Shown here: positions 1-10,599 of the stretch, one piece after another | Layout: the number at the start of each line of letters is the position of its first letter | Position numbering within the stretch: the stretch's first letter is position 1 | Assembly (NCBI RefSeq): GCF_000009705.1 | Contig: NC_003272.1 | Location: forward strand, 600,001-632,000 | From: Nostoc sp. PCC 7120 = FACHB-418 | GTDB taxonomy: Bacteria; Cyanobacteriota; Cyanobacteriia; Cyanobacteriales; Nostocaceae | Length of the DNA: 32,000 nt | Direction of reading: 5' to 3' | The notes under the pieces: model-generated | What the model saw: only the letters and a program-made list of their open reading frames with translations | Told to the model about the DNA's origin: nothing | Databases searched by the model: none | Program-made: the position numbers and the translations under genes

Positions 1-1
1 T

Positions 2-457
2 CATGGGCGTATCGGTATCCGCTTCACCGCCATGTTCGACAGCCACTTAGAAAATACAGGCTGCATCACTGGCAACTCTGATGTCAAGCTCAATATTTTT
101 GGCAGTAATAATTATACCTACCCAGATGCCAGCGTTACTTGCGACGATCGCGACAAAACCACAACCCGATATATTACCTACCCCTGCTTAATCGTCGAAG
201 TCCTCTCAAAAACTACCGAAGCTTATGACAGAGGCGGAAAATTTAGAATGTACCGCCAAAACCCAGCCTTAATAGATTACCTCCTAGTCAGTTCCACCAG
301 CATCGAAATTGACCTTTATCACAAAAACGACGCAGGCGACTGGTTAATTATCAACTACAAACCAGGCGATACAATTGAACTCAAAAGCATTAACCTAAGT
401 TTCCCCATTGAACAAGTCTATCGCGGTTTAACCCTTGAACCAGAGAATGGGGAATAG
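2..457 (+). CDS. Uma2-family (DUF820) PD-(D/E)xK endonuclease, 5' end probably cut by the window edge
   Basis: The reading frame is open from nt 2, upstream of the tracked ATG at 32. The core YPDASVTCDD...PCLIVEVLSKTTEAYDRGGKFRMYRQNPALIDYLLV matches the D...EVxS...D...K...Y pattern of Uma2/DUF820 proteins, which are expanded in cyanobacteria. Confidence 0.6.
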   Translation, partial: HGRIGIRFTAMFDSHLENTGCITGNSDVKLNIFGSNNYTYPDASVTCDDRDKTTTRYITYPCLIVEVLSKTTEAYDRGGKFRMYRQNPALIDYLLVSSTSIEIDLYHKNDAGDWLIINYKPGDTIELKSINLSFPIEQVYRGLTLEPENGE

Positions 458-491: not shown

Positions 492-1676
492 ATGAAAATT
501 GTTTCTATAAAAATTAAAAATTATCGAGCCTTTGAATCTCTAGAAATCAAAGAAATTCCCACCTTTTGCGTCATCATCGGAGCAAATGGTACAGGTAAAT
601 CTACCCTATTCGATATTTTTGGCTTTCTCCGCGATGCCCTAAAAAATAACATTCGTCAAGCCCTTCAGATCCGGGGTGGATTTAATGAAGTCGTCACTAG
701 AGGCAAAGAACAAGAAGATATCGAAATAGAACTAAAATTCCGCATGAATATTCTGGAGACAGAACGTCTCGTTACCTATATTTTAAATGTTGGACAAGAA
801 GAAAGACGACCCTTAGTTAAAAGAGAAATACTCCGGTACAAGCGTGGCGAATATGGTTCTCCCTATCACTTTCTCGACTTCCAAAACGGTAAAGGATATG
901 CCATCACCAACGAAGAAAACTTTGAACAAACCGACGAAGAACTACAACGTGAAGAACAACAACTCGAATCCAATGATATTTTAGCAATTAAAGGACTGGG
1001 GCAATTTCAACGCTTCAAAGCCGCCAGTGCCTTCCGTTCACTAATTGAAAATTGGCACGTTTCCGACTTCCATATCAGCGATGCTAGAGGCAGCAAAGAC
1101 GCACTCTATGCCGAACATCTCTCCCCCACAGGCGATAATATGGCACTTGTCGCCCAATACATTTATCAAAACCATCCCGATATATTCCAAACCATCCTCA
1201 CAAAAATGCAGGAAAGAGTCCCCGGTATTTCTAAAGTAGAAGCAAAGGAAACAGAAGACGGCAGATTAATCCTGAAATTTCAAGACCAAGCTTTTAAAGA
1301 TCCCTTCATTGATCGCTATGTTTCTGATGGCACAATGAAAATGTTTGCCTATTTAATTCTGCTCTTCGATCCTAAACCCCATCCTTTACTTTGCGTCGAA
1401 GAACCCGAAAACCAACTTTATCCTAGTTTGCTTCACGAACTCGCCGAAGAATTTGCCAGTTATGCCCACAGAGGCGGACAAGTCTTTGTGTCTACCCACT
1501 CCCCCGACTTTCTGAATGCTGTTCCCCTAGAAAGTATTTTCTGGTTGACAAAAGAACAAGGCACTACAAAAATTTTCCGAGCCAGCGATAATGAAACCCT
1601 GAACAACTTAGTGAAAGCAGGAGATTTACCTGGCTATCTCTGGAATCAAGGCTGGTTTGAAGGAGTCGCCCCCTGA
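492..1676 (+). CDS. ABC/OLD-type AAA ATPase (AAA_15/AAA_21-like), no fused nuclease domain
   Basis: Tracked ORF is 435-1676. I prefer ATG 492 because MKIVSIKIKNYRAFE is the usual N-terminus of this ATPase class. Walker A GANGTGKST is at nt 579-605. Also present are a signature-like SDGTMKMF, Walker B LLCVEEPENQLYP and an H-loop VFVSTHSPDF. Confidence 0.8.
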   Translation: MKIVSIKIKNYRAFESLEIKEIPTFCVIIGANGTGKSTLFDIFGFLRDALKNNIRQALQIRGGFNEVVTRGKEQEDIEIELKFRMNILETERLVTYILNVGQEERRPLVKREILRYKRGEYGSPYHFLDFQNGKGYAITNEENFEQTDEELQREEQQLESNDILAIKGLGQFQRFKAASAFRSLIENWHVSDFHISDARGSKDALYAEHLSPTGDNMALVAQYIYQNHPDIFQTILTKMQERVPGISKVEAKETEDGRLILKFQDQAFKDPFIDRYVSDGTMKMFAYLILLFDPKPHPLLCVEEPENQLYPSLLHELAEEFASYAHRGGQVFVSTHSPDFLNAVPLESIFWLTKEQGTTKIFRASDNETLNNLVKAGDLPGYLWNQGWFEGVAP

Positions 1677-2239
1677 TGAGCTATGACTTGATTTTTTTAC
1701 TAGAAGAACCTTCTATAGAAAATGTTTTAAAGGAAATCTTACCCAAAATAATTCCTGATGAAATTTCTTTTATTTGTATTCCTCACCAAGGTAAACAGGA
1801 CTTAGCTAAATCTATACCAAAAAAAATTAGAGCTTTTCAATTTAACCCTGACACAAAATTTGTTATTGTTCACGATCAAGACTCCCACGACTGTAAAAAC
1901 CTCAAATCAGAACTTTTAGAAATTTGTCAAAATGCAGGAAACAAAAACATACTGATCCGAATAATCTGTCATGAACTAGAATCTTGGTTTTTGGGTGATT
2001 TAGTTGCAGTCGAAAAAGCCTATGGACTAAAACCCGAAAGTTTGAGTCAAAAACAAAATAAAACCAAGTTTCGTAACCCCGATCAACTCAACTCTGCGAA
2101 AGAAGAACTCAGAAAGTTAGTTCCAGAATATTACCCCGGTACTCATTCTAGGATGATCGCGCCCTATTTATCCTTGACTGAAAACAAATCTCGTAGTTTT
2201 CAAGTTTTTCTCGATGGCATCAATAAAATTATCAATTAG
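1676..2239 (+). CDS. DUF4276-like protein (predicted Toprim-like nuclease partner of the upstream ATPase)
   Basis: The ATG overlaps the ATPase stop (ATGA at 1674-1678), which suggests translational coupling. Acidic motifs sit in the Toprim order: IFLLEEPS (nt 1703-1708), VIVHDQDSHD (DQD at nt 1874-1882) and CHELESWFLGD. The ELESWFLGD-type motif is what I recall as characteristic of DUF4276. The family assignment is from memory, not a search. Confidence 0.6.
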   Translation: MSYDLIFLLEEPSIENVLKEILPKIIPDEISFICIPHQGKQDLAKSIPKKIRAFQFNPDTKFVIVHDQDSHDCKNLKSELLEICQNAGNKNILIRIICHELESWFLGDLVAVEKAYGLKPESLSQKQNKTKFRNPDQLNSAKEELRKLVPEYYPGTHSRMIAPYLSLTENKSRSFQVFLDGINKIIN

Positions 2240-2245
2240 AGTAAT

Positions 2246-5130
2246 ATGCCCCAAACCGAAGCTGAACTAGAACGACAGCTAATAGAACGCCTCACAGGAT
2301 TAGGCTACGAACCTGTCACCCTTCGTCACCCTTCGCAACGCTGAAGACCTCAAAACCAACCTGAAAACCCAACTAGAAAAACATAACCACATCCAACTCA
2401 GCGATACCGAATTTAAAACCATCCTCAATCACCTGGATAAAGGTAACGTCTTTGACCGCGCCAAACGCCTCCGCGATAAAATGGAACTCAGCCGCGACGA
2501 TGGCACAACCTTTTACCTAGAATTTCTCAATATCGAACATTGGTGTCAAAATCAATATCAAGTCACCAACCAAATCACCCAGCAAGGCAATTACAAAAAC
2601 CGCTACGACGTAACCCTGCTGATTAATGGTTTACCCCTCGTGCAAATTGAACTCAAACGCCGAGGACTGGAACTAAAAGAAGCCTTCAACCAAATCAACC
2701 GCTACCAACGCCATTCCTACGGCGCAGACATTGGACTATTTCAATATGTGCAAATATTCGTCATCTCCAACGGCGTAAATACCCGCTACTACGCCAACAA
2801 CCGCAAACAAGAATATAAACAAACATTCTACTGGGCAGATGAAGAAAACAACCTGATCACCCAACTAGAAGACTTCGCCGATCGCTTTTTGGAAAAATGC
2901 CACGTTTCCAAAATGATCTGTAAATACATTGTTCTGCACGAATCTGACAAAGTGCTGATGGTGTTGCGTCCCTACCAATTATTATGCGGTAGAAGCCATC
3001 ATTGAGCGTGTCAAAAACACCGATAAAAACGGCTATATCTGGCACACTACCGGCTCAGGGAAAACCCTCACCAGCTTCAAAGCTGCCCAAATCCTCAAAG
3101 AACTGCCCAAAGTCCATAAAGTGCTGTTTGTGGTCGATCGCGCTGACCTTGACTACCAAACCAGTAAGGAATTTAATTATTTTAGTCCTGAGTGTGTGGA
3201 CACCACCGACAACACCGGACAACTGGTAACACAAATGGCTGGGGATAGTCGCCTGATTGTGACGACGATTCAAAAACTCAACCGGGCGATCAAATCCCCA
3301 CGCCATGAAGCTGCAATGTCAGGCTTGAAGGATCAGCCCATTGTGTTTATCTTTGACGAGTGTCACCGTTCCCAATTTGGCGAAACCCACAAAAATATCC
3401 TTAAATTCTTTACCCAAGCCCAAATGTTTGGCTTTACCGGGACTCCCATCTTTGCTGATAACGCCACCAGCAACCAGCACGGTAAACGCACCACTAGGGA
3501 CTTATTCCAGGAATGTTTGCATAAATATGTAATCACAAATGCGATCGCTGATGAAAATGTTTTAAAATTTTCCGTTGAGTATTGGGGCGGAATGAAACGC
3601 AAAGACGGCACATTAATTACAGAACCAAAGAGCGATCGCTTTGAAACCCCTGAGCGAATTTCTGGAATTGTCGATTGGATTATTGCCAACCATCACCGTA
3701 AAACCCACGGCAAAAAATTCTCTGCTATGCTCTGCGTCAGTAATGTAGATACTCTAATTACTTATTACGAAATCTTTAAAAATCAACAGCAACAGGGATT
3801 ACATAACCTGCGAATAATTACTATTTTTACCCCCAGCGATAACGAAGAAGACGAAGACGCAAACGGCTTAATTGGAGAACCGGATTTTAATATCAGCAAC
3901 GATACGAGCAGCCGCAGCCATAGCCGCGACAAATTGAATGAATTTATCGCCGACTATAACCAAATGTATAAAACCCAGCATTCCGCTAAAGATGGTCAGG
4001 CTTTTTATGCCTACTACAAAGACATCTCAAAACGGATGAAGGACAGAGATAGAGAAAACTTTCAGGACGCAGAACGCGCCGATATTCTGTTAGTCGTGAA
4101 TATGTTTATCACGGGTTTTGATGTGAAAAAACTCAATACCCTCTATGTCGATAAAAATCTCAAGTACCACGGGTTAATTCAAGCCTACTCCCGGACAAAT
4201 CGCATTTTAGGCGAACTGAAATCTCAGGGTAATATTGTTTGCTTTCGCAATCTTAAGGAGAATACCGATCAAGCGGTTTCGCTATTTTCCGATCCCAACG
4301 CCAACGAACAAATTTTTATTGAACCCTACGAATACTATATTGAGAAATTTAATCAAGGTGTGGAAGAACTGAGAGCGATCGCCACTATCCCTAATGATGT
4401 GAATAAACTAATTAGTGAAGATGACCAAGTTAATTTCGTTAAAGCCTTTCGTAATCTGATCCGTTTACAGGATGTTAGTAAATCATTTACTGAATTTAGC
4501 TTTTCTGACTTAAATCTGGATGAACAAACTTTTGAAGATTATAAAAGTAAATATCTGGACATCTACGATAAAACGCGCTCGAAACCTGATGATGAAAAAG
4601 AATCTTTAGTTGAGGAAGTCGATTTTGAACTGGAATTAATCCACCGCGACGAAATCAATGTCACCTATATTCTCAAGCTGCTGGCGAACCTCCAGCGCGA
4701 CATCAAGGATGATGCTACCCAGGAAGATTACCAAAATCAAAAAGCCTCTATCCTTGAGCTAATTGGGAAAGAAGCTCAACTACGCAGCAAGCGGGATTTA
4801 CTGGAGAAATTTATCGAACAGCGACTACCCACCCTTGAACCCCAAGAAAAACTGGAAACCGTCTTCCAAGACTTTTGGACTCAAGAACGTATTGAAGCAA
4901 TTGAACAACTTTGTCTAGAGGAAAATCTCCAGGTTACAACTGTTAATCAAATGATTGCTGACTATAAATTCTCTGGGAAAGAACCATTAAGGGAAACCAT
5001 GCTGAGTGCTTGTAACGAAAAACCCAAATTATTAGAGCGTAAAAAAATTTTTGGGCGCGTTGTCGCAAAATTACTCGACATCATCAACAAATTTGATGAC
5101 GCTCTTGGTGAGCTTGGGGAGGAAGAATAA
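2246..5130 (+). pseudogene. hsdR: Type I restriction enzyme R subunit (hsdR), disrupted by two frameshifts
   Basis: Three collinear fragments. Fragment 1 is ATG 2246 to TGA 2342-2344 (MPQTEAELERQLIERLTGLGYEPVTL...). Fragment 2 is the frame open from 2304 to 3005 (..LKTNLKTQLEKHN.., NRYDVTLLINGLPLVQIELKR, VLRPYQ). Fragment 3 is the frame open from 2959 to 5130 (YYAVEAIIERV..GYIWHTTGSGKTLTSF, FIFDECHRSQFG, GFTGTPI, QAYSRTNR). Removing one copy of the 10-bp duplication and 1 nt near 2979 restores about 957 continuous codons. Confidence 0.85.
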
Positions 5131-5165: not shown

Positions 5166-5194
5166 AAAAAAGCCGCCACGGGGACGGCTTTCTT
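5166..5194. terminator. Bidirectional rho-independent terminator-like hairpin between hsdR and tRNA-Val
   Basis: The stem aaagccg (5169-5175) pairs with cggcttt (5185-5191) around a 9-nt loop. It is flanked by an A-run on the left and T-rich sequence on the right, so either strand reads hairpin followed by a U-run. Confidence 0.5.
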
Positions 5195-5199
5195 ATATA

Positions 5200-5272
<73 letters not shown>

Positions 5273-8844: not shown

Positions 8845-9015
8845 ATGTATACCACCGTTAACGAAGCAGGCATTTTAAATAACTACGCTACCGAACCCAA
8901 AATGTATTACGCTACCTACCCCAACCAAGAGCAAAAACGCCAATATGCTTTACAGGGTGCGTTTGCTACATTGCTCATCACAACTTTAGTTTTGGTTGCT
9001 TTGGGCATTAGCTAA
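8845..9015 (+). CDS. Small one-helix membrane protein, Psb34/Ssl1498-like (light-harvesting-like family)
   Basis: This 56-aa ORF is below the cutoff of the ORF track: MYTTVNEAGILNNYATEPKMYYATYPNQEQKRQYALQGAFATLLITTLVLVALGIS. It has its own promoter-like element and terminator and a C-terminal transmembrane helix. Its N-terminal motif GILNNYATEPKMY parallels GLMNNFAIEPKVY of the neighbouring HLIP. Assignment to the Psb34 family is from memory. Confidence 0.6.
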   Translation: MYTTVNEAGILNNYATEPKMYYATYPNQEQKRQYALQGAFATLLITTLVLVALGIS

Positions 9016-9070
9016 GATTTTTAAATTTCAATATCGCTGTATCTAAATTGTCATTCGTACTTCTTTGATA

Positions 9071-9099
9071 AACCTCGGTTAGTTTCGCCGGGGTTTTTT
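9071..9099 (+). terminator. Rho-independent terminator after the small ORF
   Basis: The stem aacctcgg (9071-9078) pairs with ccggggtt (9088-9095), including one G-U pair, around a 9-nt loop. The sequence runs into TTTTTT (9094-9099). Confidence 0.7.
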
Positions 9100-10397: not shown

Positions 10398-10472
10398 GGG
10401 CGAACGAGGGGACTTGAACCCCCGAATGGTGGAACCACAATCCACTGCCTTAACCACTTGGCTACGCCCGCC
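10398..10472 (-). tRNA. tRNA-His (anticodon GUG) with encoded G-1
   Basis: The reverse complement is GGCGGGCGTAGCCAAGTGGTTAAGGCAGTGGATTGTGGTTCCACCATTCGGGGGTTCAAGTCCCCTCGTTCGCCC. The anticodon loop is TTGTGGT, the T loop is TTCAAGT, and an extra 5' G sits opposite discriminator C, as expected for bacterial tRNA-His. Confidence 0.9.
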
Positions 10473-10599
10473 ACACACATTCTTTATTATAGCACCTGTT
10501 TAGTAAACTTATCCAGAATTTTTTTTTTGTGAGGAACGGACTTTACTGATTGAGAGTCTTGGGAATGCAAATTGATTTAGCGAATTAAAGTTAGGAAAT

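Follow-up and report, generated by a model that had tools for sequence, protein, structure and literature searches.

A stretch of 32,000 nucleotides (nt) from Nostoc sp. PCC 7120 = FACHB-418 (NC_003272.1, positions 600,001 to 632,000, forward strand), hereafter referred to as the window and numbered from its first nucleotide, carries close to its start two adjacent genes encoding an ATP-binding cassette (ABC)-type ATPase and a small DUF4276 protein with a predicted Toprim fold. Judging from their sequences, the two constitute a member of HEC-01, a candidate defense system that has already been named, and they have remained intact beside a type I restriction-modification (R-M) system that has not. 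The features at the center of the analysis are the following:

492..1676, + strand: HEC-01 ABC-type ATPase, 394 aa (PADLOC PDLC04144, Pfam, catalytic-residue conservation, fold matches)
1674..1678, + strand: stop/start junction TGATG, in which the ATPase stop TGA (1674-1676) and the DUF4276 start ATG (1676-1678) share A1676
1676..2239, + strand: DUF4276 Toprim-fold protein, 187 aa, presumed metal-dependent nuclease effector (Pfam, PADLOC, AlphaFold2, Foldseek, conservation)
2246..5130, + strand: hsdR pseudogene, type IC (EcoR124-like) restriction subunit (Pfam on fragments, reconstruction, ortholog comparison)

As read from the sequence, the ATPase open reading frame (ORF) extends from an ATG at position 492 to the TGA at 1674-1676 and encodes 394 aa. 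It contains a Walker A motif (GANGTGKST, G30-T38, nt 579-605, with K36 at nt 597-599), an ABC signature (SDGT, S278-T281, nt 1323-1334), a Walker B motif (LLCVEEPE, L299-E306, nt 1386-1409, including E303/E304), and an H-loop (STHSPDF, with H336 at nt 1497-1499), and its catalytic residues are kept in at least 97% of 73 family pairs. A longer ORF starting at TTG-435 was ruled out as the gene, because homologs begin at the position of MKIV and measure 393-412 aa, mostly 394-395, with M1 invariant in an alignment of 35 sequences. The protein matches Pfam AAA_21 (6.9e-30) and AAA_15 (4.5e-24) far beyond chance, and additionally SMC_N and the OLD-type DUF2813 (33.4 bits vs. a cutoff of 21), while the Pfam scan detected no nuclease domain in it. 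An earlier reading of this DNA made from the letters alone (the original prediction) had described precisely such an ATPase, with a complete catalytic set and devoid of a nuclease domain, and it had also forecast the Pfam families AAA_21, AAA_15 and, for the second protein, PF14103; all of these were recovered. The AlphaFold2 (AF2) model of the ATPase is of low confidence (pLDDT, the predicted local distance difference test, 61.6), since the submitted alignment was shallow and held only sequences of 86-97% identity. This model matches PtuA, GajA, Thermus OLD, Rad50, and SMC heads about equally (E 1e-11 to 1e-9), and no AriA structure is among its top 50 fold matches. As far as the model goes, such matches support a defense-class ABC-type ATPase and nothing more specific. 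The fold matches do not separate PtuA, GajA, OLD, Rad50, and SMC proteins, and an AriA-like architecture in particular is unsupported by them. Between the two ABC lobes, the ATPase carries an insert (residues ~160-200) with a majority-residue frequency of 0.81-0.83 over 73 members, and AF2 confidence is very low over this region.

The second ORF (1676-2239, with its TAG stop at 2237-2239) encodes a 187-aa protein that matches Pfam DUF4276 (PF14103) from profile position 2 to 191 of 192 (4.7e-14, 53.5 bits vs. a cutoff of 30.2). Three acidic motifs are present, LLEE (E10/E11, nt 1703-1708), HDQD (D67-Q-D69, nt 1874-1882), and HELESW (E100-W104, with E100-L-E102 at nt 1973-1981), while K40 is encoded by nt 1793-1795. 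In contrast to that of the ATPase, the AF2 model of this protein has a pLDDT of 90.1 and a predicted template-modeling score (pTM) of 0.85. Its core reads beta1(5-9)-alpha-beta2(32-36)-alpha-beta3(61-68)-alpha-beta4(92-98) and is followed by a helical part, with E10 located after beta1 and D67xD69 at the end of beta3. The predicted structure accordingly displays the four-stranded parallel sheet, the Glu after beta1, and the DxD after beta3 that define the Toprim superfamily fold, and the three motifs, which had been noted previously, occur in the order that fits a Toprim model. A Foldseek search of the PDB returned a single match at E ≤1e-3, namely 6njx (E 4.7e-4, probability 1.0, query template-modeling score (TMq) 0.49), which is the C-terminal region of Xanthomonas (Xcc) OLD, comprising Toprim plus helical parts. 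Among viral models, the top match was an RloB-like protein (E 1.2e-2, probability 0.98, TMq 0.51). On this modeling evidence, the DUF4276 protein is of the Toprim fold. The earlier proposal of a split, OLD-like ATPase plus Toprim module of the OLD/PARIS/AbiL type agrees with the OLD Toprim region being the sole significant PDB match. Sequence searches of the PDB with both proteins (with a profile for DUF4276) yielded nothing usable.

Conservation of the DUF4276 protein is concentrated in part upon the same residues. Among 63 homologs with 32-54% identity to the query, E10, D67, E102, S172, and S174 are invariant, whereas E11, G39, K40, D69, E100, W104, D108, P135, and D136 are kept in at least 90%; over the 73 pairs, E11, K40, D69, and E100 are kept in at least 97%. 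At E ≤0.01, the only Pfam families that match the protein are DUF4276 and SL4P; Toprim_OLD (PF20469) and DUF4435 were not seen, and RloB (PF13707) was undetected at the sequence level. SL4P (PF17618, “Uncharacterized Strongylid L4 protein”) is a nematode family that matches residues 20-95, barely exceeding its threshold (29.1 vs. 28.1 bits), and the same match is precomputed on many bacterial homologs of the protein too. An overlap between the SL4P and DUF4276 families is probable, and nematode assemblies that contain bacterial contamination or transferred genes may be its origin.

The two genes are tightly joined. Their stop/start overlap had been reported as a 4-nt ATGA; the overlap itself is real, but it consists of the single shared base in TGATG. 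Downstream, a gap of 6 nt separates the DUF4276 stop from the hsdR ATG at 2246, exactly as had been proposed, and a terminator scan found no terminator-like site on the + strand from 492 to 5130. From the sequence, ATPase-DUF4276-hsdR is consistent with a single operon. A promoter scan returned fewer consensus sites than are found in shuffled sequence, and it says nothing on the transcription start. Beyond the window, a search with the DUF4276 protein as query gave 1,384 cluster representatives at E ≤1e-3, and in 79 of the 80 related loci compared, which are drawn from many phyla, the ATPase gene immediately precedes the DUF4276 gene. Where both ORFs were called, in 77 of the loci, the distance or overlap at their junction almost never exceeds 11 nt. 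Furthermore, identity among the ATPases tracks identity among the DUF4276 proteins (Mantel r 0.79 between the two matrices for 73 complete pairs, with 0 of 999 permutations as high). By these sequence comparisons, the ATPase and the DUF4276 protein are an obligate, co-evolving unit with the catalytic sites intact in both. An apparent fusion of the two in one related locus (L081) was rejected as an artifact of a long alternative-frame ORF, as the two tblastn matches are in different frames.

The identity of this unit is provided by PADLOC. Its profile hidden Markov models (HMMs) for HEC-01 match the ATPase at 1.9e-204 (PDLC04144, 677 bits, positions 1-394 of 395) and 5.5e-127 (PDLC04182) and the DUF4276 protein at 1.5e-65 (PDLC04143, over 4-186) and 3.6e-44 (PDLC04202). 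With an ATPase HMM match, a TOPRIM/DUF4276 HMM match, and adjacency on the same strand, the pair is, by sequence, a member of HEC-01. Two of these carry the A and B labels the other way round from the other HEC-01 models: PDLC04144, which matches the ATPase, is named “HEC-01B”, and PDLC04143, which matches the DUF4276 protein, is named “HEC-01A”. The PADLOC models for AriA, AbiLi, mad3, PtuA-like, and GajA proteins score only 56-106 bits against the ATPase, and among the PADLOC matches of the DUF4276 protein there are no MADS (mad) models and, at E ≤0.1, no AriB model. As both proteins are covered by HEC-01 models from end to end, the pair is a known candidate system and represents a well-preserved example, not a discovery. 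In this respect, the original prediction fared poorly: it had held that no characterized system employs a DUF4276 partner, which is out of date given HEC-01, MADS Mad3-Mad4, and Menshen effectors, and it had named a match to an established system as grounds for its own refutation, which is largely what PADLOC returned. HEC-01, or Hma-embedded candidate 01, was described in 2024 as an ABC ATPase plus a TOPRIM-like protein found in Hma systems, its OLD-like metal site is conserved in predicted structures, and its models were put into PADLOC (Payne et al., bioRxiv 10.1101/2024.01.29.577857).

Two frameshifts, and no others, interrupt the hsdR gene that follows the pair. The first comes from a tandem duplication of 10 bp (TCACCCTTCG x2, 2316-2335) and the second from a single additional T at position 2979. 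With both indels taken out, HsdR is an uninterrupted frame of 957 aa, and the fragments match Pfam HSDR_N, ResIII, SWI2_SNF2, T1R_D3-like, and EcoR124_C. Both indels are absent from the intact orthologs in the related loci L010, L022, and L006, and the duplication is absent as well from a remnant in L003, which ends before the second site. Read errors were considered and ruled out as the cause of the breaks, because two other public records (L001 and L002) carry the identical sequence and the orthologs are free of the indels. Two sequences, from Anabaena sp. FACHB-709 (GCA_014696465.1) and a metagenome contig, are 100% identical to the first 12.2 kb of the window bar one poly-T; this poly-T (positions 10519-10528) has 10 T in the window vs. 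9 T in L001/L002 and is the sole difference in 12.2 kb. The remainder of the R-M locus lies largely upstream of the window, and its order is hsdM, Fic, an AbrB-like gene plus a PIN gene, an hsdS remnant, Uma2, ATPase, DUF4276, hsdR. Here, hsdM is intact (537 aa), whereas hsdS is reduced to a 58-aa remnant matching residues 225-262 of an intact HsdS, so the host locus lacks the full set of intact hsdM, hsdS, and hsdR that a functional type I R-M system would have. A decaying hsdR beside an intact pair had already been recognized in the original prediction.

The related loci arrange themselves in a series of decay. A Synechococcales metagenome-assembled genome (L010) has an intact hsdM-fic-hsdS-ATPase-DUF4276-hsdR locus with 5 nt between DUF4276 and hsdR, and this arrangement is the ancestral one. 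In Leptolyngbya BC1307 (L022), the order is hsdM-hsdS-Uma2-pair-hsdR with everything intact, while in Phormidium lacuna (L008) hsdR is split. Anabaena azotica (L003) has the orthologous site, followed by the same tRNA-Val and by DUF2227 and MazG genes, but it retains only a 97-aa hsdR remnant, and hsdM is gone. Dolichospermum (L004) and Cronbergia (L005) have kept Uma2 and the pair, and they have no R-M genes. The series leads from intact R-M (L010, L022) to the window, to the 97-aa remnant (L003), and to the absence of R-M (L004, L005), with the pair intact throughout. When compared to three Nostocales orthologs at an unsaturated dS (synonymous divergence) of 0.19-0.60, the ATPase has a ratio of nonsynonymous to synonymous divergence (dN/dS) of 0.04-0.06 and the DUF4276 protein one of 0.07-0.14. 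The pair is clearly under strong purifying selection in Nostocales in which R-M has decayed or is gone, and because this selection persists after inactivation or deletion of hsdS/hsdR, the pair cannot depend upon a working R-M system. An independent, selected function had been suggested from the decay of the R-M genes alone, and both the dN/dS values of 0.04-0.14 and the decay series bear this out. Toward other cyanobacterial orders, dS is at least 1 and saturated. A recent horizontal sweep was thereby ruled out as the source of the high ATPase identity (81-91%), which reflects long-term constraint and not recent transfer, because dS between the orders is at least 1.

As to the distribution of the pair, in 9 of 79 related loci hsdS precedes it and hsdR follows it on the same strand. 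These cover two HsdR families that are only 24-29% identical, and they include Endozoicomonas and Treponema. In another 4 of the 79 (L046, L050, L063, L065), the pair lies between HmaB and HmaC, and in 1 it is beside a DrmD-like helicase, such that ~18% of related loci are inside R-M, Hma, or DISARM-like systems. Counting Pfam families in the two nearest genes on each side, with ~150 different families per side, the downstream genes include HSDR_N (7) and DUF499 (3), whereas those upstream include Methylase_S (5), DUF1156 (3), and Uma2 (4). An enrichment next to defense or R-M genes had been expected; it holds for the ~18%, whereas the rest have varied and often housekeeping neighbors. The pair also occurs in nine plasmid-collection records, including Synechocystis PCC 6803 pSYSM (L083, NC_005229.1 25994-27735, SGL_RS00110/00115), in which the DUF4276 protein is 73% identical and the neighbors are HEPN/MNT, RelE/HigA, cysteine desulfurase, dnd-associated methyltransferase, and HNH genes. 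In several loci, a very large gene (959-1,844 aa) is found on the same strand directly upstream of the pair (L028/L029 5749-8732, L032 4689-8789, L042 4668-8645, L036 3133-8667). Those of L028, L032, and L042 have no PADLOC match at E ≤1e-10, and such large genes may be unrecognized host systems for an embedded HEC-01.

Around these genes, the window and its upstream flank contain several further features:

1..457, + strand: 3' part of a Uma2-family gene (PD-(D/E)xK-like “putative restriction endonuclease”; Pfam Uma2)
5175..5188, no strand assigned: GC-rich hairpin between the hsdR stop and tRNA-Val, reported on the - strand by the terminator scan
5200..5272, - strand: tRNA-Val(TAC), oriented with the 3' end toward the R-M/HEC-01 island (ARAGORN and Rfam)
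9014-9098, + strand: PsrR1 photosynthesis-regulatory small RNA (Rfam, 51.8 bits)
10398-10471, - strand: tRNA-His(GTG) (ARAGORN/Rfam)

The Uma2 gene is cut by the window start; the full gene encodes 194 aa, begins 127 nt upstream (L001 8198-8782), and matches Pfam Uma2 at 2.5e-21 on the part inside the window and 4.2e-35 on the full ORF. It also stands just upstream of the pair in L003, L004, L005, L008, and L022, yet it makes up only 4 of 113 upstream neighbor genes scanned family-wide. Because it is this rare, we regard Uma2 as a lineage-specific neighbor outside the system. The passengers between hsdM and the ATPase gene of the dead locus occupy L001 5983-8782, upstream of the window start. 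Among them, the Fic gene has an in-frame stop (L001 6699-6701) and is intact in L010 (6505-7473), while the stop of the AbrB-like/PIN pair overlaps the start of the 58-aa hsdS remnant. The hairpin at 5175-5188 is preceded by an A-run and followed by a T-run, so it could act on the + strand too, and downstream of the ATPase-DUF4276-hsdR run no terminator-like element comes before it. In Anabaena azotica, the same tRNA-Val (L003 10894-10968) comes after the hsdR remnant. It was considered as an integration site, but an att-like repeat of at least 13 nt of the tRNA was not found upstream of hsdM, and an integrated island is not demonstrated.

Several inferences can be made regarding the function of the pair. 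We think it likely that the pair is an autonomous conflict module, directed against phages or mobile elements, in which the ABC ATPase switches on the Toprim nuclease, and that it is a passenger of the R-M locus and not one of its subunits. The mechanism we favor is drawn by analogy with PARIS, OLD, and Gabija. In this scheme, the ATPase and the DUF4276 protein would be produced from one message in a fixed ratio, because their stop and start codons overlap, and they would then form a complex. The ATPase, through K36, S278, E303/E304, and H336, would act as both sensor and switch. Upon an infection cue, it would activate or release the DUF4276 Toprim protein, which would cut nucleic acid, be it DNA, tRNA, or another RNA, via a two-metal site composed of E10, D67xD69, and E100/E102, possibly aided by K40.

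A number of observations weigh against a defense module of this kind. For ~80% of loci (~65 of 79), no R-M, Hma, or DISARM gene was detected within 10 kb, the neighboring genes fall into very diverse families, tRNA synthetases and CobN among them, and no phage-borne homolog was found in 50,697 phage records. The Toprim assignment depends upon a predicted structure with a template-modeling score of ~0.5, and there is no sequence-level match to Toprim_OLD, AriB, or any solved structure. Across cyanobacterial orders, ATPase identity is 86-97%, which is unusually conserved for a defense sensor, and the insert between its ABC lobes ranks among its best-conserved stretches. This is the opposite of AriA, in which the pore residues are poorly conserved, as expected for recognizing different triggers (PMC11464382). 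Published phage tests are in conflict as well, and both employed representatives other than the cyanobacterial pair. In the first, a HEC-01 representative gave no protection in E. coli against the phages tried (bioRxiv 10.1101/2024.01.29.577857), whereas a 2026 study reported protection of E. coli B by one representative against one or more of the phages T7, T5, and T4 (PMC12881386). The positive result comes from one construct and three phages, with no mutants or mechanism reported (PMC12881386).

The slot that the pair occupies suggests another function, in which it would guard type I R-M in a PrrC- or PARIS-like manner by monitoring HsdMSR or by sensing phage anti-restriction proteins that attack this complex, it would fire as a second layer of defense, and its location would itself be functional. 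The recurrence of the hsdS-pair-hsdR arrangement in 9 of 79 loci and in two HsdR families points to repeated capture there, the DUF4276 stop lies 5-6 nt from the hsdR start in the window, L010, and L056, and the HsdR encoded here is type IC (EcoR124_C), like that of the prrC-bearing EcoprrI. Moreover, Payne et al. point out that PARIS, Gabija, and PrrC are triggered by anti-restriction proteins (bioRxiv 10.1101/2024.01.29.577857). We nevertheless consider a guard function unlikely, as most related loci have no nearby R-M genes, selection upon the Nostocales pair outlasts the loss of hsdS/hsdR, and the same clade also resides inside Hma systems.

A further proposal, which we likewise regard as doubtful, is that HEC-01 cassettes are back-up effectors for methylation-based immunity, which would be captured repeatedly just upstream of a motor/nuclease gene and fire when anti-restriction proteins disable the host system. 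The capture junctions, hsdS|hsdR in two unrelated type I families and HmaB|HmaC, may then ensure co-expression with R-M or Hma. The conserved ATPase insert may recognize a conserved anti-restriction feature or the host complex instead of variable phage proteins, and by analogy with AriB the DUF4276 Toprim protein might cut tRNA and not DNA. If such a proposal were true, the Nostocales copies would be guards left over after the loss of their charge and retained for an R-M-independent trigger.

The pair might also belong to housekeeping or DNA repair, with an SMC/RecF-like ATPase and a Toprim nuclease acting upon damaged or abnormal DNA and no role in immunity. Very low dN/dS (0.04-0.14), strong conservation of the ATPase across cyanobacterial orders despite saturated synonymous sites, mostly ordinary neighbor genes, and the lack of phage-borne copies among the 50,697 records are all compatible with such a role, as are the first phage screen without a phenotype (bioRxiv 10.1101/2024.01.29.577857) and the resemblance of the ATPase model to Rad50 and SMC heads. 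A repair function is nonetheless quite improbable in our estimation, since the pair is patchy across phyla with some copies on plasmids, it is embedded in R-M, Hma, and DISARM-like operons repeatedly and far above the frequency of a random gene, the closest fold relatives of its effector, OLD and RloB, are proteins of conflict systems, and phage protection was observed in one published test (PMC12881386). Finally, a selfish, toxin-antitoxin-like addiction cassette, in which the ATPase would hold a Toprim toxin in check and the cassette would persist because its loss kills the cell and not through any benefit to the host, could account for survival beyond the surrounding R-M system and for the toxin-antitoxin neighbors here (AbrB-like/PIN, Fic) and on pSYSM, and Pfam describes AAA_21 as a “putative AbiEii toxin, Type IV TA system”, but it is very improbable, as full-length purifying selection on both proteins, including all ATPase motifs, over long evolutionary distances fits an active enzyme better than mere neutralization.

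The principal value of the locus is as a tractable and naturally isolated example for working out the role of HEC-01, which is among the commonest uncharacterized candidate defense systems. The locus does not add a new kind of system. What is new is the linkage in 79 of 80 loci, the hsdS|hsdR slot in two unrelated HsdR families, the HmaB|HmaC slot, and selection after R-M decay. The last of these amounts to a natural experiment, in which the pair has been kept under strong purifying selection after the death of its R-M system, and this argues for a function of the pair alone. It is located in a genetically tractable host, Nostoc/Anabaena PCC 7120, for which PCC 6803 pSYSM offers a convenient second system, and the residues given above supply a precise list for mutation. 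In annotation, HEC-01 ATPase and HEC-01 Toprim (DUF4276) nuclease can serve as names for the two genes, while hsdR can be designated a pseudogene.

Among characterized systems, the pair is related to MADS Mad3-Mad4, PARIS, AbiL, and Gabija, and it belongs to none of them. In the type IC EcoprrI system, prrC separates hsdS from hsdR, and here a candidate defense pair likewise occupies the hsdS|hsdR interval of a type IC locus. PrrC is an ABC-ATPase defense that is almost exclusively embedded in type I R-M (bioRxiv 10.1101/2024.01.29.577857). Unlike the pair, which mostly occurs without R-M, PrrC consists of one protein that includes a nuclease domain, and its latency requires the R-M complex. 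The rlo genes are a feature of Campylobacter, and RloA/RloB resemble the pair in placing an ATPase and a small Toprim-superfamily protein inside type I hsd loci. RloB also resembles the DUF4276 protein in fold, an RloB-like protein being the best viral match of the model, but the two are in separate Pfam families, RloB in PF13707. The Menshen study placed both DUF4276 and RloB in the Toprim superfamily, and some Menshen effectors use DUF4276 (PMC12065111).

OLD proteins (P2 Old and the class 2 Bp/Xcc OLD) and GajA share with the pair an AAA_15/AAA_21/DUF2813 ABC ATPase and a Toprim E...DxD...E metal site, except that in these proteins one polypeptide comprises both the ATPase and the Toprim parts, while the pair has a gene for each. 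Judged by what defines OLD, the ABC ATPase type is present, whereas the likeness of the effector is at the level of the fold only, and Toprim_OLD/DUF4435 is not recognized in its sequence. Gabija is distinct in that the GajA models match partially (56-64 bits) and there is no adjacent helicase gene (GajB/UvrD), bar the hsdR pseudogene. Closer in composition is MADS, as Mad3-Mad4 likewise combine an AAA15/21 ABC ATPase with a DUF4276 Toprim protein (PMC11464382, PMC12065111), and “MADS3-4” and AbiL have been listed as ABC ATPase plus TOPRIM (DUF4276) systems (PMC11464382). However, the NCBIfam MAD3 model (NF047739) scores 127.9 bits vs. a cutoff of 420 and covers the C-terminal half only, PADLOC mad3 gives only 87 bits against the ATPase, and in place of other mad genes, which are absent from the window, the neighbors are hsdM, Fic, PIN, Uma2, and hsdR. 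PARIS is the best-understood mechanistic template. Its AriA ABC ATPase and AriB TOPRIM nuclease form one immune complex that mediates tRNA degradation (PMC11464382). It has the same split logic and ATPase Pfam families in common with the pair, whereas its effector is DUF4435 (AriB) instead of DUF4276, and AriA scores remain at a generic AAA_21 level of ~100 bits vs. 677. HEC-01 itself exhibits the same order of an ABC ATPase followed by a TOPRIM-like protein, and relatives of the pair that are 58-68% identical in the ATPase lie between HmaB and HmaC, the placement given when HEC-01 was first described. A distinction from HEC-01 as originally described is the host system, which in the original is Hma and here is a type I R-M system, now dead.

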